Shown piece after piece: positions 4,510 to 38,776 of a stretch of 64,000 nt of DNA. The notes under the pieces are model-generated. The model was not told the origin of the DNA. It did not search any database and saw only the letters and a program-made list of their open reading frames with translations. Made by a program: the position numbers and the translations under genes. Location: NCBI GenBank assembly GCA_900315885.1, contig ONAT01000001.1, positions 10,988 to 74,987 of the forward strand, given 5' to 3'. Every line of letters starts with the position of its first letter. The stretch's first letter is position 1. This DNA is from an uncultured Erysipelotrichaceae bacterium (GTDB lineage: Bacteria > Bacillota_I > Bacilli_A > RFN20 > CAG-826).

Positions 4510-4593
4510 GCGTTTAAATGAAACGCCGCAAGCGGTCCGCTGGAGCTCACTACTCGAATGAACGCCCAAGACAATGTAAGGAGCGTGGAAATT
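4510..4593 (+). promoter_or_regulatory. Possible ribosomal protein L19 leader (structured 5' UTR)
   Basis: GC-rich, hairpin-forming 5' UTR (GCGTTT-AAATG-AAACGC; CCGCAAGCGG) in an AT-rich genome, directly upstream of rplS. An L19 leader is known in Firmicutes. Not aligned to a model. Confidence 0.35.
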
Positions 4594-4941
4594 ATGAATA
4601 ATAATTTAGTCAATGAGATTTCAAAATCTCAACTCAAAAAAGATATCCCAGCATTTAATTCTGGCGATACAATCAACGTTTATGTAAGAATTATTGAAAA
4701 CGGCAAAGAAAGATTACAATTATTCCAAGGTGTTGTTATTGCACGCCGTGGCGGTGGAGTTAGCGAAACATTTACTGTTAGAAAAATTAGTAATGGTGTC
4801 GGTGTTGAAAGAACATTCCCATTACATTCTCCAACAATCAACAGAATCGAAGTTGTCAAAAAAGGTAAAGTTCGTCGTAACAAAATCTTCTACATCCGTA
4901 AACTTTCTGGTAAAGCTGCACGTATTAAAACAGTTCTTTAA
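4594..4941 (+). CDS. rplS: 50S ribosomal protein L19
   Basis: [38 protein letters not shown]...[11 protein letters not shown] 4594 follows AAGGAG; the longer track ORF start is rejected. Confidence 0.95.
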
Positions 4942-4957
4942 TTCTAAAATAGTGACT

Positions 4958-4986
4958 AAAAGGTTCCAATACTGGAGCCTTTTTTG
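4958..4986 (+). terminator. rplS terminator
   Basis: AAAGGTTCC...GGAGCCTTT hairpin plus a T-run. Confidence 0.7.
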
Positions 4987-5055
4987 TTGCTCGGGAAATT
5001 GTGTTTGTAAATAATTATAATTTTATTTATAATTATTGCGTAAAGAAGGGCTGTT

Positions 5056-5643
5056 ATGAAAAAGAAAACTTTAAAAATTATTGATATTCTTATTACAGTT
5101 GCGACAGTTATTTGTTTAATCGTAACAGGTCTTTTTGTTTACCGAAATATCGTATATGAACATGTCATAGTTTCTGGAACATCAATGCAAGACACTTTAG
5201 ATAGTGGTGACTATGGATTAATGAATGTCACTGAATCACGAAAACAAAATATTCAAAGATTTGATATTGTTATTTTTGATTTATCAGAAGAACAAAAAAA
5301 TTATGACATTATTAAACGCGTAATAGCGTTACCTGGTGAAACTATTAAAATTGATACAACAGGTACGATATATATTAATAACGAAGAACTTGATCAATCT
5401 TCCTTTTTGGTTGAATATCAAAAGGATTATACATACTCCAATAATGGTGTTGCTTGTGGCGAAGAATATAAAGTACCAAATGATGCATATTTTTGCTTGG
5501 GCGATAATCGTAAAGTATCATTAGATTCAAGAGTGCGCGGAGCACTATCTCGCGATAAAATTGATGGTGTTTTAAGAGTTATTTATAAACATTGTAATGA
5601 AGAAGGAAAAGCGTGTAAGAGTATTCCTGCACGTTGGTTTTAG
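5056..5643 (+). CDS. lepB: Signal peptidase I
   Basis: N-terminal TM segment, SGTSM (Ser box), KRVIALPGE (Lys box) and GDNRKVSLDSR. Confidence 0.9.
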   Translation: MKKKTLKIIDILITVATVICLIVTGLFVYRNIVYEHVIVSGTSMQDTLDSGDYGLMNVTESRKQNIQRFDIVIFDLSEEQKNYDIIKRVIALPGETIKIDTTGTIYINNEELDQSSFLVEYQKDYTYSNNGVACGEEYKVPNDAYFCLGDNRKVSLDSRVRGALSRDKIDGVLRVIYKHCNEEGKACKSIPARWF

Positions 5644-5652
5644 GTGATTTTT

Positions 5653-6504
5653 ATGCAACAAAAGAATATACATTGGTTCCCAGGTCATATGCAAAAAGCC
5701 ACTCGTGAGATTGAAGAGCGAGTTAAAATTGTGGATGTAATTATTGAGTTGTTAGATGCACGCGCCCCATTATCAAGTCGAAATGAAAAATTATATAAAA
5801 TAACTCAAAATAAAAAAAGAGTTTTGATTTTGACAAAAAAAGATTTAGCAGATGATGTAATAACTGAAAAATGGAAAGAATATTTTACTTCTTTAAATTA
5901 TCAAGTTGTATGTGCTGATTTAAACGAAAAGAAACTCATTAAAGTAATTGAAGAAAAAATTAATATTTTAGGCAGAGATAAACGCGAAAAAGAAATAAAA
6001 AAAGGTATGAAGCCTCAACCAATTCGCGCAATGATTATTGGTATTCCTAATGTAGGAAAGTCGACATTAATAAATCGTATCTCCAAAAGAAATGCTGCTT
6101 CGGTTCAAAATACTCCAGGACACACTAAATCCCAGCAATGGATAAAAGTTGATAATTCTTTTGAATTACTTGATACCCCTGGTATTTTGCCTGCGAACTA
6201 CGAAAATAAAGAATACGCAATTAACCTTGCTTTAGTGGGCTCAATAAGAGAAACAATCTTACCAATTGAAGAATTAGCGGATATTCTTTTAAACTATTTA
6301 AGAAAATATTATCCTGAAACAATCAAAAACCGCTACGTAATTGATTTTAATGAGAAAGATGATAATAATTCAATCTTATGCAAAATTGCTCTTAAACGTG
6401 GCTTCTTGCTCAAACAAGAGCCAGATGTAAGCAAAGCATCAAGTCTTTTATTAAAAGAATTTAGAGATGGCATTTTAGGACACATCTCTTTGGAGAGATT
6501 ATAA
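5653..6504 (+). CDS. rbgA: Ribosome biogenesis GTPase A (YlqF/RbgA)
   Basis: IHWFPGHMQKA, circularly permuted GTPase motifs (TKKD ... GIPNVGKST ... DTPG). ATG 5653 follows AGGTGA. Confidence 0.9.
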   Translation: MQQKNIHWFPGHMQKATREIEERVKIVDVIIELLDARAPLSSRNEKLYKITQNKKRVLILTKKDLADDVITEKWKEYFTSLNYQVVCADLNEKKLIKVIEEKINILGRDKREKEIKKGMKPQPIRAMIIGIPNVGKSTLINRISKRNAASVQNTPGHTKSQQWIKVDNSFELLDTPGILPANYENKEYAINLALVGSIRETILPIEELADILLNYLRKYYPETIKNRYVIDFNEKDDNNSILCKIALKRGFLLKQEPDVSKASSLLLKEFRDGILGHISLERL

Positions 6505-8065: not shown

Positions 8066-10168
8066 ATGAAATTAGTAATCGTTGAATCTCCAACTAAGTG
8101 TCACACAATTGGAAGATATCTAGGTGAAGATTACAAAGTTGTAGCATCGTTAGGACATGTCAGAGATTTATCTATTAAAGGAAAAAGTGGTTTAGGTATT
8201 GATGTAGAAAATGGGTTTAAACCTACTTATGAAATTCAACCTAAACAAGCTAAAGTTGTTAAAGAATTAATTAAAGATGCTAAAAGTGCCGATGAAGTTA
8301 TTATCGCAACCGACCCTGATCGTGAAGGAGAGGCAATTGGCTGGCATCTTATTGAGATTTTAGGATTAGATCTTAAAACAACTAAAAGATTAGAATTCCA
8401 TGAAATCACTAGAACTGCAATTGCCGAAGCACTAAATAGTCCACGTCACATTGATATGAATTTAGTAGCGTCGCAAGAAACACGTAGAATTTTAGATCGT
8501 ATTATTGGTTTTAAATTGTCCACTCTTTTACAAAGCAAGATAAAATCTCGTTCGGCAGGAAGAGTGCAATCATCATCATTAAAACTTATTGTTGATCAAG
8601 AAAAAGAAATCAATAGTTTTATTCCTGAAGAATATTGGACAATTGAGACAAGTCTTACTAATGGTAAAAAGAAAATTCAGGCTTCTCTAGATGGCTCATA
8701 TAAAATTAAAAATGAACAAGAAGCACTTGATTTAGAAAATCAAATAAGTGACATCGCAAAAGTTATCGAAATACAAAAAACACGTCGTGTTACGGAATCA
8801 AAGCCAGCATTTACAACTTCAACAATGCAACAAGAGGCATTTAATCGTTATAAATTCTCAACAAAAAAGACATCTATTATTGCTCAAAAGCTTTATGAAG
8901 GTGTACAAGTTGATACCGAAGTCGTTGGTTTAATTACTTATATGCGTACAGATTCCACTCGTTTAGCACCTGTTTTTGTAGAGAAAGCGAAGAATTATAT
9001 TTTAGAGCACTATGGCCAAGCTTATGTTGGAAAAACTAAAACATCAAAATCAAAAGCAGTAATTCAAGACGCTCACGAAGCAATTCGCCCAACATCTTTA
9101 CATAGAACTCCAGAATCTATTAAGCAATATTTAAGTAATGATGAATATAAACTTTACAGTTTGATATATAATCGTGCTTTAGCATCGCTCATGAGTGCAC
9201 GAATTGATGAAATCACTTCCGTTAAGTTTGAATCAAATGGCGTAATCTTAAAAGCAAGTGGGGTAGCAAAAATCTTTGATGGTTATAGTTATATTCTTGG
9301 AAGTAAAGATAAAGAAGAAATTAAAGAATTACCAATTATTGAAGAAAACGAAGTATTTAATGTAGCAAAAATTGAAAAAGAACAACACTTCACTAAAGCA
9401 CCCGCAAGATTTAGCGAAGCTAAGTTAGTTAAAACAATGGAAGAAGTAGGTATTGGTCGTCCATCCACTTATGCTTCTACGATTGAAATTTTAAAAGCTC
9501 GTAAATATGTTAGTGTTGATTCAGGAACCTTAACTCCAACAGAGCAAGGTTTAAAAACAGATACAGTATTAGAAGAATATTTCCCATCTCTAGTAGACCC
9601 ATCCTTTACTGCTGACATGGAGAAAAATTTAGATAACATTGTGGCGGGTAGTGAATCTCGTCTTCAATTATTAGAGAATTTCTATAAAAACTTTATGGAA
9701 AAATACGATTACGCTAAAGAGCATATGGAAAAAACAAAAGATGAACCATCGGGGAATATTTGCCCAAGATGTGGATCGCCTTTGGTTTATAAAAATTCAC
9801 GTTATGGAAGATTTGAGGCATGTTCAAATTATCCACATTGCCATTACATTGTGCCAAAAGCCAAGGCAGAAATTCCTAGTGACGCTCCGATATGCCCAGA
9901 ATGTGGAGCACCACTCGTATTAAGAAAAAATAAAAAAGGACAATCTTTCTATGGTTGTAGTAATTTTCCAAAATGTCATTATGTCAAAGGTGAAAATGAT
10001 GCAGCCCCAAAGAAAGAAGAAGAACCACCTGTTGTAGTAGGTAACTGTCCAGAATGTGGTGGGGATTTAATTATTAAAAAAGGTAAATATTCAAAATTTA
10101 TTGGTTGTAGTAATTTCCCGAAGTGTCATCACATGGAAAAATGTTCAAGCAAAGAGACTAAAAAATAG
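8066..10168 (+). CDS. topA: DNA topoisomerase I with three C-terminal C4 zinc ribbons
   Basis: MKLVIVESPTK TOPRIM, DPDREGE, YMRTDS active-site Tyr region, and three CPxCG...C..C modules. Confidence 0.95.
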   Translation: MKLVIVESPTKCHTIGRYLGEDYKVVASLGHVRDLSIKGKSGLGIDVENGFKPTYEIQPKQAKVVKELIKDAKSADEVIIATDPDREGEAIGWHLIEILGLDLKTTKRLEFHEITRTAIAEALNSPRHIDMNLVASQETRRILDRIIGFKLSTLLQSKIKSRSAGRVQSSSLKLIVDQEKEINSFIPEEYWTIETSLTNGKKKIQASLDGSYKIKNEQEALDLENQISDIAKVIEIQKTRRVTESKPAFTTSTMQQEAFNRYKFSTKKTSIIAQKLYEGVQVDTEVVGLITYMRTDSTRLAPVFVEKAKNYILEHYGQAYVGKTKTSKSKAVIQDAHEAIRPTSLHRTPESIKQYLSNDEYKLYSLIYNRALASLMSARIDEITSVKFESNGVILKASGVAKIFDGYSYILGSKDKEEIKELPIIEENEVFNVAKIEKEQHFTKAPARFSEAKLVKTMEEVGIGRPSTYASTIEILKARKYVSVDSGTLTPTEQGLKTDTVLEEYFPSLVDPSFTADMEKNLDNIVAGSESRLQLLENFYKNFMEKYDYAKEHMEKTKDEPSGNICPRCGSPLVYKNSRYGRFEACSNYPHCHYIVPKAKAEIPSDAPICPECGAPLVLRKNKKGQSFYGCSNFPKCHYVKGENDAAPKKEEEPPVVVGNCPECGGDLIIKKGKYSKFIGCSNFPKCHHMEKCSSKETKK

Positions 10169-31690: not shown

Positions 31691-31724
31691 AAAACTAAAT
31701 GTCGTAATGCGATACACACAATTT

Positions 31725-31756
31725 AACTATCTAGATTAGTTTTTAGATAGTTTTTA
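31725..31756 (+). terminator. yhaM terminator
   Basis: AACTATCTA...TAGATAGTT plus TTT. Confidence 0.7.
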
Positions 31757-31760
31757 TGTG

Positions 31761-31793
31761 CAAAAAAGCACCTTTGATGCTATCGCTGGTGCT
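31761..31793 (-). terminator. Terminator of the island cargo operon
   Basis: Minus strand reads AGCACC-15 nt loop-GGTGCT followed by T6. Confidence 0.7.
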
Positions 31794-31935
31794 AAGTTAC
31801 TAAATTGTACTTTCTTTTAAATTAAGAATATTAGTATTTTTTATTAGGACATTTAGACTCAAAATTTTCTATTATCACAACTAGCTTAACAAAATTTATG
31901 CTTTTGTGTTTTAAACTATTCGATAATTTTTTTGC

Positions 31936-32271
31936 TTATTGATTTAATCTATTGAGTTGTTCAGAAACCATATCATTCAATTCAAAAGACCCATCGTTTA
32001 ATATATTAAGTCTATCTTTAATCTTGGTGATTAACTTCATTAGTTCATCGAGGTGTTCCTTTGCCATTAAAATATTAAATCTACATGCATTATTTTCATC
32101 AAACTCATAAAATGAACTATATAATGCGGATGCTTTATCATTTAAATTGTTTATTTCCGAATCATTATCAATAACATCTACTCCTGTAACCAATTTGTTT
32201 TTACTAATACTAAATACATCTTTAATAATAGGGCCGATTAAAAAATCCAATTCTAATTTTACTTTTTTCAT
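31936..32271 (-). CDS. Hypothetical 111-aa acidic helical protein (immunity/antitoxin-like by position)
   Basis: Starts 2 nt after the stop of the toxin-like ORF. No TM segment, no family recognised. Confidence 0.65.
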   Translation of the reverse strand: MKKVKLELDFLIGPIIKDVFSISKNKLVTGVDVIDNDSEINNLNDKASALYSSFYEFDENNACRFNILMAKEHLDELMKLITKIKDRLNILNDGSFELNDMVSEQLNRLNQ

Positions 32272-32273
32272 TT

Positions 32274-32750
32274 CTATTTACCTCCATCCAGTGGATACAT
32301 TGAAACAATATAACCATTGGTACCTACGGCACCAAGTGTATAATATTTTCCTTTGTATAAATATATTTTTTCTAGTCCCACTTTTCCATTACTTAGAATT
32401 TTTTCTTGGGAATGTATGATAACACCTTTTGTAATTACATTTTTAAGATGTACAACTAAATGTTTTTCTTGTATGTTGTGTTTATCAACAAAATCATTAA
32501 TATGTTTTTTGATGTGTTCTAATCCTTTAATTGTGTTTCCTTTTTCGAGCCACACTACTTGACCACTTTTGTCTTTTGCAGTAAAGATAACATCCTTAGG
32601 ATTTATTTTAACACCATTTTTTATTAGATCACCTAGTAAAGGATTATTTTTTATTAGGGCATTTGTTTCATTTTGGAGATTTGCTCTCCCACCTTTTGTA
32701 CCAAGTCCATCTCCTCTTAAACCTTTGCTAAATTTACTACCTTGTCCCAT
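32274..32750 (-). CDS. Hypothetical 159-aa protein, toxin-like (Gly-rich N-terminal linker plus small C-terminal domain ending ...GTNGYIVSMYP)
   Basis: ATG 32750 follows AGGAGGG and overlaps the DUF4417 stop by 14 nt. The longer track start (32867) lies inside the upstream gene. Confidence 0.65.
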   Translation of the reverse strand: MGQGSKFSKGLRGDGLGTKGGRANLQNETNALIKNNPLLGDLIKNGVKINPKDVIFTAKDKSGQVVWLEKGNTIKGLEHIKKHINDFVDKHNIQEKHLVVHLKNVITKGVIIHSQEKILSNGKVGLEKIYLYKGKYYTLGAVGTNGYIVSMYPLDGGK

Positions 32751-33468
32751 ATATCGCACCCTCCTTCTTATACATGTCAATCTTAGAATGAGGAATAATA
32801 ATTTTGATGCCTTTAGATTCAGCATATCCAAAGATTTCATCAAAATTAGATTTGGTAACAAAGCCATAAACGACTATTATTTTAGGCTCTATTCTATCAA
32901 CAGCTTCTTTAAGACCATCTAAGAACATTTTCTTATTTTCTTTGTCTTTAATTTGACCCAAGATGCTAATAGCAATATTAGAACCTTTCATTATTCCGTC
33001 AAAAGAGAAATCATAACAGAAATTAAATGTCCATCTTATATTTGGAATAACGATTGCGTTTGTATTAGCTTTCAACCAAGCAATACATAATCTTGATCTA
33101 TAAACATTAAATATTTGAAGCGCTACTGGGAAATCACCAAAGAGTGAATAATCAGGACCTACTATATATTTAATATTTCTAAATCGTTCACGAAACATAT
33201 TTAATCTTTTTTCATCTTTATAGATGATTGAATTATAGAGTCCGTGAACTCCATCAAATACATGGTCGTACTGATAAAAACAAACACATGTATTTTTTGT
33301 CTTTTGATATTCCTGTAAATCTGAATATAATGCTAAATAATCTATTTCACTAATATCATCAAAGCAACCAATTACAGGTATGTCATAATCACCTTCAAAT
33401 GAAAGTGATTCAAGTAAATAGACACCAAAGATGTCTTTGAAATTATTTCTTACATTGTAACTTGCCAT
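32737..33468 (-). CDS. DUF4417-like protein (function unknown)
   Basis: 243 aa. GPDYSLFGDFPVALQIFNVYRSRLCIAWLKAN..AIVIPNIRW....CYDFSFDGIMKGSNIAIS matches my recollection of the PF14386 pattern. GGAGGA SD. Confidence 0.6.
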   Translation of the reverse strand: MASYNVRNNFKDIFGVYLLESLSFEGDYDIPVIGCFDDISEIDYLALYSDLQEYQKTKNTCVCFYQYDHVFDGVHGLYNSIIYKDEKRLNMFRERFRNIKYIVGPDYSLFGDFPVALQIFNVYRSRLCIAWLKANTNAIVIPNIRWTFNFCYDFSFDGIMKGSNIAISILGQIKDKENKKMFLDGLKEAVDRIEPKIIVVYGFVTKSNFDEIFGYAESKGIKIIIPHSKIDMYKKEGAIYGTR

Positions 33469-33547
33469 AATCTTCCTCCGTTAAATGAAGGAAATGACAA
33501 ACACATGCAAGAAAAAATTTCTGAAAACCAATTAATTTTATGTACAT
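33443..33547 (-). CDS. Candidate 34-aa hydrophobic/cationic small ORF (MYIKLIGFQKFFLACVCHFLHLTEEDYGKLQCKK)
   Basis: ATG is 9 nt after GGAGG. The ORF overlaps the DUF4417 start out of frame and is below the ORF-track length cutoff. Confidence 0.3.
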   Translation of the reverse strand: MYIKLIGFQKFFLACVCHFLHLTEEDYGKLQCKK

Positions 33548-33614
33548 ATTCGTACACCTCCAATTCTTAAAAATTTTTGTGTCAATCTAGCGTTCGTTAA
33601 AAACACACAAAAGA

Positions 33615-33644
33615 TTGATATTTTTAAGACAGTTGTGCTACAAT
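33615..33644 (+). promoter_or_regulatory. Plus-strand promoter of the sRNA candidate
   Basis: TTGATA-18 nt-TACAAT with TGc extended -10. Confidence 0.55.
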
Positions 33645-33650
33645 GTACTT

Positions 33651-33718
33651 GCTGAAGGTGGCATCATAGCATGCTGTCTTAACGGCTCAAGTCACTGTAA
33701 TGGCTTGAGCCGTTTTAT
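33651..33718 (+). ncRNA. Candidate ~70-nt small RNA (promoter-to-terminator unit without an ORF)
   Basis: Lies downstream of the 33615-33644 promoter. It ends at hairpin AACGGCTCAAG/CTTGAGCCGTT (33681-33714) plus TTTTATTT. Only a 3-codon ORF lies inside. Confidence 0.45.
33663..33690 (-). promoter_or_regulatory. Minus-strand promoter facing the sRNA promoter, directed at the sORF/DUF4417 operon
   Basis: Minus strand reads TTGAGC-16 nt-TATGAT with TGc extended -10. Confidence 0.45.
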
Positions 33719-34282
33719 TTAATGCTTACTTATAAATTCAGCAATAAATTCGTTTTCATAATCGTTCAAATCAGACTTGTTGCTAAGAATTCTATTTTCT
33801 GCTGCTTTATATGCATTACAAGCTGCTTCATATGATATATCGAAATCATCAGTAATTTCCATAAAAGAAAAATGGTTAATATATGGCATTACAAGACATG
33901 TTGGAGCAAGTATATACCTTGCAAAATGGTTTGCCAAATCTTCATCTTTTTCATTTGGGTTAAATTCAAGACAAACAACATGCTTGATTTCGTGAGCAAT
34001 TGTTAATCTTATTCTAGCAGTTCCTATTTGATCGTTGTAAAAAGTATAAAATTCATATTTACCATTCTTCTTTTTGAAAATTGTGAAACCATCTTTTAAT
34101 TCTTCTTTACTCGTTATAACTTCCAATTGCTCCTCTGTCAAAGAAGAATATTTGATAAGGACAATATTTAATTGCTTGGCTAATTTGAAGACATCTAGAC
34201 GTTTTTCAAAATGACAATAGTCAATTCTTAGTCTTAATGCCAATTCATCCACTTTTTTATAATCCCTACCACTATGATACAT
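33719..34282 (-). CDS. ImmA/IrrE family (COG2856) zinc metallopeptidase
   Basis: HEIKH (HExxH) within IAHEIKHVV, typical size, and the start overlaps the stop of the XRE gene. Confidence 0.8.
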   Translation of the reverse strand: MYHSGRDYKKVDELALRLRIDYCHFEKRLDVFKLAKQLNIVLIKYSSLTEEQLEVITSKEELKDGFTIFKKKNGKYEFYTFYNDQIGTARIRLTIAHEIKHVVCLEFNPNEKDEDLANHFARYILAPTCLVMPYINHFSFMEITDDFDISYEAACNAYKAAENRILSNKSDLNDYENEFIAEFISKH

Positions 34283-34599
34283 TACTTACCTCCGAATAGA
34301 ACTTTTATGATTTCCGCTTTTTGAGCATCATCCAATTTTGATTTGTTACGAGTAACAACGCACAAAGTTTCCTCATATGCATCCGGTTGAACTGCGTTAT
34401 CCATTTCTCCAACTAAATAAGATGTGCTTACATTAAATACTTTAGCAATATTAGCTAATATATCCATTCTAGGTCTTAAATCGCCTGATAGATATCTGCT
34501 GACGGAAGCTTCAGATATTCCAGAAAGTTTGGCCAATTCTTTTTGTGAAATATTATCACGTTCCATCAAACTTTTTACGCGCTCCTTAAACTCTTTCAT
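34282..34599 (-). CDS. XRE-family helix-turn-helix transcriptional regulator (ImmR-like)
   Basis: ISQKELAKLSGISEASVSRYLSG...ANIAKVFNVSTSYLVG. Confidence 0.88.
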   Translation of the reverse strand: MKEFKERVKSLMERDNISQKELAKLSGISEASVSRYLSGDLRPRMDILANIAKVFNVSTSYLVGEMDNAVQPDAYEETLCVVTRNKSKLDDAQKAEIIKVLFGGK

Positions 34600-34637
34600 G
34601 AGTTGTACCTCCTAAGCTTTTATTCTAAAGCAATTCA

Positions 34638-34666
34638 ATTATACCAATTTCATTTCTGCAAGTCAA
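34638..34666 (-). promoter_or_regulatory. Promoter of the XRE-ImmA genes
   Basis: Minus strand reads TTGACT-17 nt-TATAAT with TGg extended -10. Confidence 0.65.
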
Positions 34667-34802
34667 TATGTTTACTTAAATAAATTGTTTTTATAAATTT
34701 GGATTGTGTAAAAGTTGCTATAGTGTAATGCTAATTTATTAAGAATATAAATGATCATTTGAATAAGTTAATATAATTATGTAGTATGAATTTTTAACAT
34801 AT

Positions 34803-34833
34803 AACAAAAGGATTACCCATAACGGATAATCCC
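34803..34833 (-). terminator. hit terminator
   Basis: Minus strand reads GGATTATCC-loop-GGGTAATCC followed by TTTTGTT. Confidence 0.7.
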
Positions 34834-34867
34834 ATCATAAATTTAATATATTCAGTTTTTATTATAA

Positions 34868-35343: not shown

Positions 35344-36930
35344 CTATTTATCGCTATCTTTATCCCAGACATCTGGATATGTTGTTTTGAAATATTCATA
35401 AACAGCAGTGTCGTGGAATTGAATATTAGCTTCTTCTAAGTAATGGCATAATGCTTTAGTCTTGTATGTTTCTCTTGCAGCATATTTCTCAGCCATTTCA
35501 TCAATAATCTCATTATACATATCGTCAGTGTATTGAGTTGAGTCTTTGCTAGAAGTCAATTTTCTAATATTGACAGCTTCTTCAACGATAACAATGTAAT
35601 ATGTTTTACTGCTCTTATCATAAATCACGCAGTCCATATTTTTATCAGCGGCGTTTTCTGGTGATTCAGGTTTTAAGTAGTAATTACCATTAACATTTGT
35701 AACATATTTGTTTTTGCCATCAGCAATAGTTTCTTTTAAGTTGCTATGAATGTTGTTGGCGACAGCGATATCAAATAACCTTGAAGAAATGGATGATGGT
35801 AATGATGTTGTATCATTTGATTTTGCAAACCAACCATCTTTGCTATATTCTGCCTTACGAATCTTATTCTCTTTTAATTTAAGACCAGTTTCTTTAGAAT
35901 AAGCACCATTATTAGTGAATTCGTTTTCAACAGTTGAATTTGTCGTTAATTCATCTGAAGTAATTTTGTTATAATCTGTTATTACGTCACCATAAAGTGT
36001 ATAATCATAGCCAGCTACAGCATCTTTGATATGTGCATCTTTTAGTAATTTATAAATTTCGTCTTTATCTTCATATGTATCAATATCGATGCCTTTCCAA
36101 GCTCTCTCTAATAAAGTTAAATCAATTGTCTTATTGCCAGTGATGTAATTCTTAACATATGTTTTAATTAAGCTAGAAGCAGCTTCTGGGTGGTTGCTGT
36201 TTTCCGCAATTGCAACATATTTAATTTTACGTCCTGCTGATTTGCCAAATGAATCAGCTTCTTCTTGTTTTACATATTTTTCAATAAGTAATTCACGATA
36301 TACTTCTGGCAAATATGTATCTTCCATATATCTTGTATAGTCACATTTCAAGACATATTTTCCTATGTTAGGAACACGTGTGTCAGCAGTATATGCTTTT
36401 CCATCACGATCAGTTCCACCTGCATATAAATGATCGATTGAGTCTTTTAAGAAGACATAATCTGTGGTGTAGTCTGAACTTGTTGTAGATGTTGAAATGG
36501 AATAAGTTAAATTTTGTTGGATAGTTGCAACAAACAATTGTTCATTAAATTGATTACGGAAACTATCGTATGTGCCAGTTGTAATAGCAGCATATAACTT
36601 TTCATTCATTCTACCTTTGATGTCAGTTACTAATTTGACATCTTCAGCTTTTGTACTCCTCTTTAATTCTTGGTAGTTACCAATTTCTTGTTCTGCTAAA
36701 GTATAGAGAACTTCATCAAGAACAGCGCTATTGATAGAACCATTTTCGTATAATTTGTCATAGACAATTGTACGAAGGTTATTTGTTACATCCTCGACTT
36801 TCTTACCATCGACTGTTTCGCCGGATAATAAGTAATCTTTATCATAGCTAGGCTTTGCTTCAATGTCACATCCTGCAAGTAACATCATTGCAGAGGCAAC
36901 AAGAATTACCTTATTTAATCGTTTTGACAC
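35344..36930 (-). CDS. Putative lipoprotein (about 528 aa), function unknown
   Basis: Signal peptide with lipobox LLAGC. I prefer GTG 36930 (GGGGGTG SD 6 nt upstream) over the track start 36939. It overlaps the upstream gene by about 20 nt. Confidence 0.75.
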   Translation of the reverse strand: MSKRLNKVILVASAMMLLAGCDIEAKPSYDKDYLLSGETVDGKKVEDVTNNLRTIVYDKLYENGSINSAVLDEVLYTLAEQEIGNYQELKRSTKAEDVKLVTDIKGRMNEKLYAAITTGTYDSFRNQFNEQLFVATIQQNLTYSISTSTTSSDYTTDYVFLKDSIDHLYAGGTDRDGKAYTADTRVPNIGKYVLKCDYTRYMEDTYLPEVYRELLIEKYVKQEEADSFGKSAGRKIKYVAIAENSNHPEAASSLIKTYVKNYITGNKTIDLTLLERAWKGIDIDTYEDKDEIYKLLKDAHIKDAVAGYDYTLYGDVITDYNKITSDELTTNSTVENEFTNNGAYSKETGLKLKENKIRKAEYSKDGWFAKSNDTTSLPSSISSRLFDIAVANNIHSNLKETIADGKNKYVTNVNGNYYLKPESPENAADKNMDCVIYDKSSKTYYIVIVEEAVNIRKLTSSKDSTQYTDDMYNEIIDEMAEKYAARETYKTKALCHYLEEANIQFHDTAVYEYFKTTYPDVWDKDSDK

Positions 36931-38620
36931 GGCAAGCACCCCCTACTGCATATAATGAACTTGTTGATGCATCAGCAAATGCGTTAGCACAATCTAAACT
37001 GATACGGCGGCTTTCGTTATCTTCGATAACTTCAAGTTTTTCTACGAATTCAGTCCATGTTTGGTTCATTGTATTTTTATTTGTGTAATCGTAATAGAAT
37101 TCAGTGTTATCAATGTATTTGTTGATAGCATCTTCTAATGTGATTGTTCCGTATTCTGGAATATCATATTTGATTTCATCATTAAATGTGAATCTTCCAG
37201 GTACTAAGTTAAAGTAATATTTGAAAATTGAATTATCAATTAACTTATCATAACTTTCAACTGCGGATTTAATTTTTTCCTTACGTTTATTGTATTCAAG
37301 ATTGCTCTTTTCATTGAAGTTTACGTACATAGTACCAATTGAACTATTGTATTCATCATTGCTCTTTTTGTAATCGTAATATGCTGCTAAAGTATCAGAA
37401 GTTTCTGTAATAGCAGATTTTTCAATAACCATAAAGAAAATACCTTGGTATGAATCGCCTGAGCCAGAACGGACAACTAAGATTGGTTTGCCTGTTGTAG
37501 TGCAAAGTGCGTACTCATCAGTGCCTAAGACATTACCCAATCCGTTATCAGCATCAGCAGCTTTAAATCCTACTAAATTGTTAGCTTCAACATAAGTTTT
37601 TGGAGCAGTGATTAAAGCGATACGATGCGAGTTGAATAAATTATTAAAGTAGACATTACGTGGATAATAATTTTCATCTCCATCATTAACTTTAATACCA
37701 TTGCTGTCTTTTGTTAAACTTACTAATTCGGACATCTTCATAATTTGTTCATAAGAAATCTTGTCCATATTAGTTTTGCTTGCGTAGTAGTCAGCAGCGT
37801 ATGTTGACATGTTGATATTTTCTGCTCTAGCATCTTTTGCTTTTGAATTGTAAATCTTATCGAATGCATAAATTCCCAATTTAAATTCATTAACATAAGA
37901 TGAATCTAAAGTAACAATATCACCTTCACCATAGTTTGATGCAGAACTTGAATCGCCAGATAAACTTTGTGCGACAGATCCGAATGTATCACCACGTGAT
38001 AAACGTTTGATAGCACCAGTTAGGTTAATTGCTTCTTGTTCGGTGATTTGACCCTTGTAACCACCATCAGTGTCAGAAGCACTGACATTGATTAACATAT
38101 GACTTACATGATATGGAAGTTTTTCATTGATATATTCTCTTAAGAGTTTATAATCATTTGCTTCGTTATCTTTAAAGTATTTGTCACGAGCTTTTGATTT
38201 CAATTGATCATAAATGAACTTATCTTTTAATTCATTTAAGTTTTCAACACCATTGTCTTTGAGAATTTTATCCAATTCTTCATCGTAAGTGGTTTTGGTT
38301 TTGTTTGTTTCAGCATTAGAACTAGCTTTGTCCTTTTGTTGATTGACGTTTTGTTCGGCAGTATTTTTGATTTCATCGGTGACTTCGATGGAAGCACGAA
38401 TAACTACTTCACACAATGCGTCATAGTAACTTGTAATGCCAGTTGATTTAGTAATGTATTTATTGAAAATATCATTAACATTAATCTCTTTTGCTTTATC
38501 GCTACCATTGTTGATTGTTAAAATTGCATCGGCTTTTTTACTTACTGGGTCACAACTAGTGAGTGTCATTCCACCAATCATGAAAGCAACTAAGCCAAGT
38601 ACAAGGTTACGTTTCTTCAT
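36911..38620 (-). CDS. PrsA-like lipoprotein (parvulin/PpiC-type PPIase-like foldase)
   Basis: MKKRNLVLGLVAFMIGGMTLTSC lipobox, a YHVSHMLI parvulin-like motif, and ATG 38620 after AGGAGG. It lies adjacent to hit, as prsA does in Bacillus. Confidence 0.7.
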   Translation of the reverse strand: MKKRNLVLGLVAFMIGGMTLTSCDPVSKKADAILTINNGSDKAKEINVNDIFNKYITKSTGITSYYDALCEVVIRASIEVTDEIKNTAEQNVNQQKDKASSNAETNKTKTTYDEELDKILKDNGVENLNELKDKFIYDQLKSKARDKYFKDNEANDYKLLREYINEKLPYHVSHMLINVSASDTDGGYKGQITEQEAINLTGAIKRLSRGDTFGSVAQSLSGDSSSASNYGEGDIVTLDSSYVNEFKLGIYAFDKIYNSKAKDARAENINMSTYAADYYASKTNMDKISYEQIMKMSELVSLTKDSNGIKVNDGDENYYPRNVYFNNLFNSHRIALITAPKTYVEANNLVGFKAADADNGLGNVLGTDEYALCTTTGKPILVVRSGSGDSYQGIFFMVIEKSAITETSDTLAAYYDYKKSNDEYNSSIGTMYVNFNEKSNLEYNKRKEKIKSAVESYDKLIDNSIFKYYFNLVPGRFTFNDEIKYDIPEYGTITLEDAINKYIDNTEFYYDYTNKNTMNQTWTEFVEKLEVIEDNESRRISLDCANAFADASTSSLYAVGGACRVKTIK

Positions 38621-38776
38621 AAATAGCTTCTCCTCCTTATAAAACATAAGCAAAGTTATTGTATACAATAATGGCTTACAATTCAAGAAAAAAATTATTA
38701 TTTTATATTTAAATATTAAATATAGGCCTGCTTATGCGATTTGGGCTCTTTACAATAAAGTTAATAAAAAAAAGTT

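Follow-up and report, generated by a model that had tools for sequence, protein, structure and literature searches.

In the polymorphic toxin systems known as S8-PTS, a conserved enzyme is encoded together with a polymorphic toxin, in many cases an RNase with a Barnase/EndoU/Colicin/RelE (BECR) fold, and an immunity protein (Li, Tan and Zhang 2022, PMC9424270), while the MuF toxins of temperate phages carry swappable C-terminal domains and are accompanied by immunity genes (Jamet et al. 2017, PMC5576092). Pairs of an XRE-family regulator and an M78 peptidase, namely ImmR/ImmA, DdrO/IrrE and CapH/CapP, act as switches that derepress their targets upon DNA damage (10.1101/2022.04.27.489752). Here we describe a block of genes between yhaM and hit in a 64,000-nucleotide (64-kb) stretch of contig ONAT01000001.1 from an uncultured Erysipelotrichaceae bacterium (the whole of this stretch is called the window below). 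On its minus strand the block encodes an XRE-family repressor, an ImmA/IrrE-type metallopeptidase, a DUF4417 protein, a toxin with a Gly-rich leader and an immunity protein, and a candidate small RNA gene lies on the opposite strand. The reading that we favour, at a probability of about 0.6, is that the block is a self-contained, horizontally moving cassette carrying an undescribed three-component polymorphic toxin system under the control of an XRE/ImmA switch and an antisense small RNA. It is one member of a large and apparently undescribed family of swappable toxin cassettes in gut bacteria and phages. As judged within the literature searched, what is new is the kind of polymorphic toxin system, whose toxin and immunity domains are themselves already known.

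The overall design is closest to that of the S8-PTS and the MuF phage toxins, from which the cassette differs in its enzyme, its leader, its regulators and its antisense RNA. Whereas the enzyme of the S8-PTS is a subtilase that releases the toxin, and its toxins bear a signal peptide and a BetaH domain, the DUF4417 protein is TIM-barrel-like with no recognisable peptidase, and the toxin begins with a Gly/Ser leader of ~30 residues and has no signal peptide. In contrast to the MuF toxins, the toxin carries no fused MuF domain, DUF4417 is encoded as a protein of its own, and many cassettes, that of the window included, lie far from phage genes. There is a further likeness to head-packaged phage effectors, in which toxins of the ADP-ribosyltransferase (ART) class (VIP2/Alt-type) are found near packaging genes, since DUF4417 cassettes occur beside terminase, MuF and tail genes in phages. 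Residues 33–150 of the toxin and the fold of the immunity protein match the two chains of the CdiA-CT/CdiI complex of strain BWH57 (7M5F), but the locus contains no CdiB transporter, CdiA filament or translocation domain, and the toxin is a free protein of 158 residues with a short Gly-rich leader in a genome of Gram-positive type (Bacilli). The locus is not a contact-dependent inhibition (CDI) system and shares with such systems the toxin and immunity domains only. It also differs from type II toxin–antitoxin (TA) modules, in that the neutraliser is encoded last, matches no DNA-binding domain and has a CdiI-like fold, and the regulators are separate proteins. Colicin operons combine a stress-inducible promoter, a nuclease toxin, an immunity protein and a third gene needed for exit or action of the toxin, and the cassette is similar in these respects. 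However, colicins are controlled by LexA rather than by an XRE/ImmA pair, their third gene encodes a lysis lipoprotein where the cassette has an enzyme-like, cytoplasmic DUF4417 protein encoded ahead of the toxin, and the cassette lacks the receptor and translocation domains of colicins.

The block is a real and recent insertion that is polymorphic within the species. Metagenome contigs encoding an identical 308-residue YhaM are of two kinds, 13 bearing the block and three with an empty junction (L188, L190 and one similar contig), where hit begins 38–44 nucleotides (nt) past yhaM. When L188 and L190 were compared with the window by blastn, the flanks proved to be 98.8–99.8% identical, while homology stopped at 31694/31695 and restarted at 34850/34851. 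The inserted segment, which has no strand of its own and is absent or present among strains of the same species, is therefore 31695..34850 (3,156 base pairs, bp). The insert displaces 16–22 nt of the empty junction, corresponding to a bidirectional terminator (CCGAAC..GTTCGG) shared by the two neighbours, and brings its own terminators for both yhaM and hit; no terminal direct or inverted repeats and no target-site duplication were found at its borders. The empty junction is also seen in ~25 species of related Bacilli/Erysipelotrichales represented by metagenome-assembled genomes (MAGs), where recX–yhaM directly faces hit and two lipoprotein genes in convergent orientation; in none of these ~25 species are the block genes present at this position. 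The host is an uncultured gut bacterium of low G+C content whose nearest species representative in the genome collection shows 68% YhaM identity; the block is not set apart from its surroundings by G+C content, and no integrase, recombinase, phage structural or conjugation domains were found in it by scans with Pfam, PADLOC, PHROGs and NCBIfam. The first-pass annotation of this DNA had described an integrase-less insertion of ~3 kb into core backbone and had suggested that the yhaM–hit interval be examined for presence/absence polymorphism. The comparison of empty and occupied sites bears out both the insertion and the polymorphism, and all five minus-strand open reading frames (ORFs) were recovered at the coordinates given there, along with a 34-residue small ORF (sORF), while the proposed span of 31761–34666 has to be enlarged slightly to 31695–34850.

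The two genes at the 3′ end of the block form a cognate toxin–immunity pair, because their products match both chains of one complex, 7M5F. The 158-residue toxin (32274..32750, minus strand) consists of a Gly-rich leader of about residues 1–32, which reads MGQGSKFSKGLRGDGLGTKGGRANLQNE, and a BECR-fold RNase domain. Residues 33–150 match 7M5F_C, ‘Toxin CdiA’, in the Protein Data Bank (PDB) with an E-value of 3e-12 (phmmer), 7M5F being the CdiA-CT/CdiI complex of Serratia marcescens BWH57 in which the toxin has the BECR RNase fold (PMC8616854), and the C-terminal part gives a weak, sub-threshold match to Pfam PBECR1 (0.021). In an alignment of 22 members of the toxin family E69, H79, H83 and N145 are invariant, and the window toxin keeps the GLxHI..H and NGY motifs of the 7M5F toxin; on our own reading of the alignment, H79, H83 and N145 would be the counterparts of H47, H52 and N117, singled out in 7M5F. 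No sequence match was obtained for the 111-residue immunity protein (31936..32271, minus strand) in the Pfam, PADLOC, PHROGs and NCBIfam scans. Its AlphaFold2 (AF2) model, with a mean predicted local distance difference test (pLDDT) score of 93, matches the CdiI chain 7m5f_A among PDB folds with a probability of 0.96 and template modelling (TM) scores of 0.51/0.56, the next match having a probability of 0.11; identity to CdiI is 16%, so that the similarity is one of fold only. As predicted from sequence and model, the chemistry of the pair is most likely that of 7M5F, with a BECR RNase blocked by a bound immunity protein. The terms ‘toxin-like’ and ‘immunity-like’ used at first pass thus find support in homology to the two chains of one solved toxin–immunity complex.

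The cargo genes are also tightly coupled, as had been noted before. The toxin gene overlaps that of DUF4417 by 14 nt, with its Shine–Dalgarno (SD) sequence (AAGGAGG) and ATG lying within the last DUF4417 codons, and a gap of 2 nt separates it from the immunity gene. A programmed frameshift fusing DUF4417 to the toxin was considered, given that the toxin frame is open for ~117 nt upstream in the window and its close relatives, and was rejected: the frame is closed in distant loci while the internal SD sequence and ATG are conserved, which makes DUF4417 and the toxin separate, coupled ORFs. All 59 homologues of the toxin that were found are short, free-standing proteins of 105–181 residues, and in none of the 59 does the homologous region form the C-terminus of a large secreted protein.

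A scan of metagenome and viral contigs with the DUF4417 profile, followed by ORF analysis, yielded 76 loci beyond those reached through diverged toxin and DUF4417 homologues, all loci being denoted here by L numbers, and counts for the family are given over ~60 distinct loci. With few exceptions, a pair of small ORFs in tight coupling comes after DUF4417 in these loci, the first of them (gene 2) being translationally coupled to DUF4417 and its start lying between −25 and +2 nt relative to the DUF4417 stop. Gene 2 products share a Gly/Ser-rich leader of ~30 residues with the consensus M-G-x4-S-G-L..G-T-x-G-S-P-Q-x-S-h-E-Q, which is common to unrelated toxins and in which residue 2 is Gly in 43 of 66 cases. 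Past the leader, these proteins fall into 15 unrelated C-terminal clusters that correspond one-to-one with the clusters of gene 3, and at least 12 unrelated toxin domains are represented, of the BECR, EndoU, Ntox50, deaminase and ART kinds. Representatives match Ntox50 (9.6e-22), EndoU_bacteria (1.8e-23), DUF6883 (6e-13), Ntox24 and YwqJ-deaminase in Pfam, all of them families defined from polymorphic toxins; in the representatives from other loci only such C-terminal toxin domains were matched, and no trafficking domain. In the close subfamily of 243-residue DUF4417 proteins, which are 66–86% identical to that of the window, the toxin of the same locus is 29–85% and the immunity protein 31–78% identical, and in distant DUF4417 lineages a toxin can exceed its DUF4417 in conservation. 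It follows that the modules are exchanged.

Polymorphic toxin systems are understood here as defined by Zhang et al. 2012 (PMC3482391). The family has a conserved N-terminal leader ahead of many alternative toxin domains, an adjacent downstream immunity gene that co-varies with the toxin domain and, in the family although not in the window, an orphan module that keeps a piece of the conserved upstream region. The last is seen in L108/L109 (6001–8563), where DUF4417, a first toxin and its immunity gene are followed by a duplicated 3′ fragment of DUF4417, a second toxin of different subtype and a second immunity gene; the second pair is a classic orphan toxin–immunity module, as found in CDI and Rhs loci. 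Neither a signal peptide nor LXG/WXG, RHS, MuF, two-partner secretion (TPS) or other trafficking determinants were recognised, and because of this lack of a recognisable secretion determinant the family is placed among polymorphic toxins by its architecture and evolutionary behaviour. A DUF4417-type partner does not appear in the passages searched of the 2012 survey. Further variants include P0280 (525 residues), in which DUF4417 is joined to two tandem immunity repeats of the window type (1e-13 and 1e-11), and P0407 (349 residues), in which the beginning of a DUF6883-type toxin (4e-7) is attached to it and which may be cut by the contig end; some contigs (L019, L159) carry two cassettes.

The genomic settings of these cassettes are diverse. 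They adjoin thyA–folA (L014) or ruvX (L181), lie among purine genes (L017) or between recG and plsX–rnc (L183), and in L016 occupy a TraG/ClpP region resembling a conjugative element. In L011 the cassette and a NERD-domain gene stand between two opposite-strand ORFs of the isochorismatase family (4675–5028 and 8696–9217; 117 and 173 residues), perhaps representing a target gene that was split or duplicated. A 31-residue ORF is also present 3′ of the immunity gene in L011.

The same arrangement extends to phages, where DUF4417 was found in 494 records, 384 of them mycobacteriophages; the mycobacteriophage gene labelled ‘nuclease’ or ‘VIP2 protein’ is DUF4417. In Mycobacterium phage Equemioh13 (L178) a trio at the left end of the genome comprises gp2, a DUF4417 protein (phrog_940, ‘nuclease’), an overlapping gp3, annotated as a ‘VIP2-like toxin’ and beginning MGGRGGKGG, and gp4, which matches phrog_3585, ‘immunity protein’, at 9e-29. 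VIP2-like toxins have been reported in actinobacteriophages of subclusters A2 and A15 and of cluster D, with their role stated to be unclear (PMC7302621). In Mycobacterium phage Gardann (L192, gp077/gp076) DUF4417 lies in the middle of a tRNA array and is followed by a protein of 116 residues starting MGGRGGGGGG, and in a Christensenellales phage the stretch from the major tail gene to a long ORF in the position of the tape measure gene holds DUF4417 and an ART-like protein starting MGTRGSSS. Streptococcus phage IPP55 encodes a ParB–DUF4417 fusion, a type of fusion already noted in prophages in the literature, then, overlapping it, a gene whose product has a JAB-like motif and a stretch rich in Gly, and then terminase. 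Two viral contigs carry the full regulator–DUF4417–toxin unit at a prophage end, beside lysis genes in L102 and beside MuF–portal–terminase genes in L104, where the MuF protein has 881 residues.

The constant partner of the toxin cassettes is the DUF4417 protein itself (243 residues; 32737..33468, minus strand; PF14386, 1.2e-36), a member of a family that numbers 2,505 clusters at 50% identity in a profile search. Its PHROGs matches, phrog_8680 and phrog_940, are annotated as ‘unknown function’ or ‘nuclease’ only, neither the protein nor the profile matched any PDB sequence, and no published link between DUF4417 and toxins, or role for DUF4417, was found in the literature searched, which excluded subscription titles. 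The AF2 model (pLDDT 86; predicted TM score, pTM, 0.86) has eight beta–alpha units in a (beta/alpha)8-like arrangement, and against a library of viral structures it matches three unnamed phage proteins strongly, followed by weak matches to phage ‘tRNA-guanine transglycosylases’. D68, D72 and N79 are invariant and D106, D112, R126 and N143 invariant or nearly so, and these conserved acidic and polar residues suggest, from the alignment, that DUF4417 is an enzyme. The C-terminal tail YKKEGAIYG, conserved in the close subfamily, is in part a nucleotide constraint, since it encodes the SD sequence (AAGGAGG) and start codon of the toxin. PADLOC, NCBIfam and PHROGs assign the cargo to no named system, in agreement with the first-pass view, and the PADLOC run proposed there returned zero matches for DUF4417, the toxin and the immunity protein.

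Upstream of the cargo lie the two regulatory genes, the only ones in the block with PADLOC matches (capH, capP and RmrA). The XRE-family helix–turn–helix (HTH) repressor (105 residues; 34282..34599, minus strand) matches HTH_3 (7.5e-14), PADLOC capH (5.4e-12), transcriptional regulator and repressor families of PHROGs (best 1e-20) and, below the cut-off of that family, the RstR family of NCBIfam (1.5e-17). Its stop codon overlaps the start of the ImmA/IrrE-type M78 metallopeptidase (187 residues; 33719..34282, minus strand) as TAATG. The latter has the motif HEIKH and matches Peptidase_M78 (8.5e-5), phrog_87, a metallo-protease family (1.6e-7), and capP (2.8e-7); it covers only positions 17–150 of the 242 of the capP profile and so has no GAF part. 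Domains, HExxH motif and gene overlap agree in supporting the XRE plus ImmA/IrrE switch proposed earlier, and an XRE gene followed by an overlapping HExxH M78 gene is the arrangement of ImmR/ImmA (ICEBs1, phage phi105), DdrO/IrrE and CapH/CapP. Being co-directional with the cargo and lacking a GAF domain, the pair is ImmR/ImmA-like and no member of the CapH/CapP group. By analogy with the ImmR/ImmA class its expected logic would be a protease-triggered derepression on a signal of DNA damage or of a mobile element. It differs from that class in that neither excision genes nor any known immune operon are under its control and in that the antisense small RNA gene lies between regulator and cargo.

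The promoter of the pair (TTGACT-17-TGgTATAAT; 34638..34666, minus strand), 39 nt upstream of the XRE start, is the best sigma-70-like match of the region, agreeing at 11 of 12 positions and with an extended −10 element, which upholds its earlier description as near consensus, and as read from the sequence it probably drives the whole operon. Since promoter-like matches are not enriched as a class (27 found against 24.9 expected), the case for this promoter is one of quality and position rather than of statistics. In 35 of the 60 distinct loci an XRE-family gene of the same strand is found upstream at a distance of no more than 1.3 kb, with an M78 peptidase recognised in 19 of these 35 and in more by the Pfam scan. 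The XRE–ImmA pair is the commonest regulator of the cassette family, and the description of the switch as ‘orphaned’ is not upheld. A conserved protein of ~131 residues with no known domain (MSSIFDNPNFQ..ISVTKNGVGFSKQ..) takes its place in eight loci whose cassettes are otherwise very similar, among them L016 (5674–6069), L017 (6363–6791), L018 (6435–6827) and loci in the range L179–L184, and is probably an alternative regulator; it has no match in Pfam or the PDB, and a likeness to AbrB is an impression only. PIN–DUF3368 or Fic proteins hold the regulator position in a few loci. In L104 the XRE and M78 parts are fused into one protein of 351 residues, and an ISL3-family transposase (4546–5862) lies between regulator and DUF4417.

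The gap between the regulatory gene and DUF4417, 130–280 nt long whatever the regulator, holds a feature absent from the first-pass annotation. In the window this is a candidate small RNA gene between ImmA and DUF4417 and opposite to the operon (33615..33722, plus strand), made up of a promoter (TTGATA-18-TGcTACAAT, 33615–33644) and a terminator of 14 pairs, both on the plus strand. The predicted transcript of ~70 nt (~33651–33722) comprises a 5′ tail GCUGAAGG, a first hairpin, the 14-bp terminator hairpin (33681–33714) and then TTTTATTT. The same layout of a near-consensus promoter with 17-nt spacing, a transcript of ~69 nt and a G+C-rich hairpin with a T-run, all on the opposite strand, recurs in the gaps of 46 of the 60 distinct loci, with the terminator abutting the stop codon of the upstream gene; the position is the same in L101, L106–L108, L016–L018, L130, L162, L165, L174 and others. 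At strict thresholds the unit is found on the opposite strand in 28 of 60 gaps, on the operon strand in none of the 60, and in 0–1 of 60 dinucleotide shuffles. These controls support the view that the conserved opposite-strand unit is a real, if predicted, small RNA gene.

The predicted RNAs have in common a short 5′ tail ending in YNAGG, a first hairpin and the terminator. In 25 of 28 cases their 5′ part folds more stably than the reverse complement does, by a mean of −4.0 kcal/mol and with a median z of −2.5 against shuffles, and 56 of the 278 pairs in these 28 folds are G–U. The terminator loops are often CUGCAA, CUGUAA or CGCCAA on wholly different stems, and the promoter spacer and the stretch just 5′ of the terminator are connected by an inverted repeat. 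No Rfam family was matched by the RNAs of the window and five other loci, and RNAalifold found no consensus in a MAFFT alignment of 14 of them, that alignment not being a structural one; folding of single sequences, strand asymmetry and shuffles were used as controls instead. Trans pairing between the 5′ 28 nt of the RNA and the start regions of DUF4417, toxin and immunity genes gave a median z of ~0 over 29 loci, no sign of pairing at these sites. In several loci the −35 box of the small RNA lies 24–40 nt from the DUF4417 start, and transcription of the cargo therefore crosses the small RNA gene in antisense. In the gap of the window a face-to-face promoter candidate, TTGAGC-16-TGcTATGAT, is also present, with similar ones in about six other loci.

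Within the reading that we favour, the parts of the cassette would work together as follows, the XRE/ImmA steps being modelled on ImmR/ImmA, DdrO/IrrE and CapH/CapP. XRE would repress its own promoter (34666..34638) so that only a trickle of XRE and ImmA is made, while the strong convergent small RNA promoter and its antisense transcript (33615–33722) would block read-through into the toxin genes. Upon DNA damage or a signal from a mobile element ImmA would cleave XRE, and the derepressed transcription would override the small RNA promoter and antisense RNA to yield DUF4417, toxin and immunity protein. The immunity protein would shield the producer from the RNase, and DUF4417, as an enzyme-like TIM-barrel protein, might process, activate, package or release the toxin by way of its Gly-rich leader. 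The toxin would then reach cells without matching immunity, probably by lysis- or phage-linked release, a route proposed because phages carry the same triad as a late or accessory module. A role in competition between cells is favoured, by analogy with systems in which toxin families, co-varying immunity genes, orphan modules and immunity repeats are the marks of inter-cell weapons. More tentative, though possible, is the idea that DUF4417 represents a new arming or delivery route for toxins in bacteria and phages alike, in which an enzyme recognises the Gly-rich leader so as to modify, process or couple the effector and in which the antisense RNA is integral, whether by gating expression or by serving DUF4417 as partner or substrate. 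As most leaders start with Met-Gly, a free N-terminal glycine is likely once the Met is removed.

Several observations weigh against this reading, whose weakest steps are the biochemical role of DUF4417 and the route of delivery. As to delivery, the toxin is linked to no secretion signal, no trafficking or receptor-binding domain and no secretion machinery, and the leader matches no known export signal. As to DUF4417, the search of its model against PDB folds gave nothing at E≤1e-3, the top matches being assorted TIM barrels, and neither that search nor hhalign against Tgt detected a homologue with known function. The idea of a base-exchange enzyme like tRNA-guanine transglycosylase (TGT) or DpdA had arisen from weak Foldseek matches (TGT 6yiq, query TM score, TMq, 0.40 and E 0.08; phage ‘TGT’, TMq 0.52 and E 0.05) and from an analogy of the ParB–DUF4417 fusions with DpdB plus DpdA, and was reduced to a remote possibility when hhalign gave a probability of 0.1% for the profile against Escherichia coli Tgt. 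On the regulatory side, the match of ImmA to Peptidase_M78, at 22.8 bits, barely exceeds the cut-off of 22, and hairpin 1 of the window's copy of the small RNA is not significant against shuffles (z = +0.16). The gap contains only weak operon-strand promoter candidates, none conserved in position, for which reason read-through into the cargo is an assumption, and the hairpin past ImmA, although no terminator on the operon strand, could slow such read-through. Finally, the orphan toxin–immunity module that marks the family is absent at the window locus.

The first-pass annotation had spoken of a ‘conflict, defence or addiction module’, and of these terms conflict is the one preferred, the polymorphic-toxin behaviour pointing more to conflict between cells and less to defence or addiction. 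In an anti-phage defence by abortive infection, XRE/ImmA would sense damage or infection, the RNase would serve as a suicide effector and DUF4417, as sensor or activator, would free the toxin from its immunity protein in the infected cell. We consider this unlikely, even though the best PADLOC matches of XRE and ImmA are capH (5.4e-12) and capP (2.8e-7), and pairs of the CapH/CapP kind control many immune operons according to two reports (10.1101/2022.04.27.489752; PMC13228613). CapH/CapP lie upstream on the opposite strand and CapP has a GAF domain, whereas here the pair is co-directional with the cargo and the 187-residue ImmA has none, and no cargo protein matches any PADLOC model. A small accessory islet that is polymorphic between strains is usual for defence genes, and swapping of effectors is typical of them too, but a co-varying immunity gene, orphan modules and repeats of the immunity domain characterise polymorphic toxins rather than abortive infection effectors, and the same triad is carried by lytic-capable as well as temperate phages. 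It is more doubtful still that the block serves addiction or stabilisation as a three-part toxin–antitoxin that makes loss of the islet or its carrier element lethal, with DUF4417 as a chaperone or modifier accessory. The tight coupling of toxin and neutraliser would suit such a role, as would the persistence of an integrase-less block between housekeeping genes and the presence of the module in prophages and on a region resembling a conjugative element; moreover, the BECR RNases include the TA toxins MqsR and BrnT, structural neighbours of 7M5F (PMC8616854). However, the toxin-first order, the lack of a DNA-binding antitoxin and the separate regulators are atypical of type II TA modules, and addiction leaves unexplained the leader, the invariant DUF4417 and toxin domains of the secreted polymorphic type (Ntox50, EndoU_bacteria, CdiA-CT). 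Strains of the same species with an empty site exist, so that loss or non-acquisition of the cassette is tolerated.

Least probable is that the block is inert and now functionless, being what is left of the lysogeny-control end of a prophage or integrative and conjugative element (ICE) that has decayed, with a leftover moron. XRE plus ImmA is indeed a classic immunity pair of ICEs and prophages (10.1101/2022.04.27.489752), and related cassettes stand at prophage ends, by lysis genes in L102 and by MuF–portal–terminase in L104. Yet none of the five ORFs is disrupted and all have good ribosome-binding sites, the proteins are 60–86% identical across many clusters, the five genes recur in identical order in many chromosomal settings that are unrelated and have no phage genes nearby, and the insert has clean borders with new terminators for both neighbours. 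The first-pass annotation would have accepted a decayed remnant if homologous blocks were always embedded in complete prophages or ICEs. This is not the case, for prophage or conjugative contexts (L016, L102, L104) are matched by housekeeping contexts (the window, L017, L018, L179–L184), and this occurrence in both alike argues that the block is an autonomous unit and not a decayed remnant.

Terminator-like sites are enriched overall in the region (eight found against 1.2 expected). The replacement terminator for yhaM (31725..31757, plus strand), inside the insert, was read from the sequence as AACTATCTA..TAGATAGTT followed by TTTAT and is not listed by the terminator scan because it has only two G–C pairs. 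The replacement for hit (34809..34833, minus strand), also inside the insert, was found by the scan as a strong terminator of 11 pairs and a T-run. The terminator of the cassette operon (31761..31793, minus strand; stem 31781..31767), claimed as the block's own at first pass, is real but weak, with 6 pairs followed by TTTTTG. A 20-nt stretch of the toxin gene, where the leader meets the toxin domain (32645–32664, codons NALIKNN), recurs with 95% identity at 31835–31854, perhaps as a scar of recombination left by an orphan module since lost. The 240 nt 3′ of the immunity gene show no significant similarity to toxin or immunity families except for this one repeat, so that no remnant of an orphan toxin lies in that stretch, and no second cassette, extra toxin or leader-like ORF was found elsewhere within the 64-kb window. 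The upstream sORF (34 residues; 33443..33547, minus strand), which has its own ribosome-binding site (GGAGGTG) and spans the ribosome-binding site and start codon of DUF4417, could be a leader peptide, a coupling ORF or a small membrane peptide. An sORF of 27–34 codons with its own strong SD sequence occupies the same position in L106, L107 and L108, of the closest cassette subfamily only, and is missing in more distant loci. Pfam confirms the flanking genes as YhaM-like (OB fold and HD domain) and HIT; the label ‘prsA’ for the hit neighbour received no supporting domain match in the window. Beside hit are two large tandem genes (35344–36939 and 36911–38686, minus strand; 531 and 591 residues) that have no Pfam match and are syntenic across the ~25 related MAG species.

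These observations place DUF4417, a large orphan family, in a setting open to test, as the invariant partner of swappable toxins that bear a leader and are paired with immunity proteins, and they offer a context for the ‘nuclease’, ‘VIP2-like toxin’ and ‘immunity protein’ trio of Equemioh13. They also point to a new family of small RNAs that would gate expression between a stress switch and a toxin operon. Presence and absence of the cassette within one species provides a natural experiment on competition between strains. If the favoured reading is true, the cassettes would be a new kind of polymorphic toxin system among gut Bacilli with small genomes that lack the usual secretion machines, and if DUF4417 does provide an arming route, the hundreds of mycobacteriophage ‘nuclease’/‘VIP2-like toxin’ pairs and the streptococcal ParB–DUF4417 fusions would be parts of one effector-handling system.

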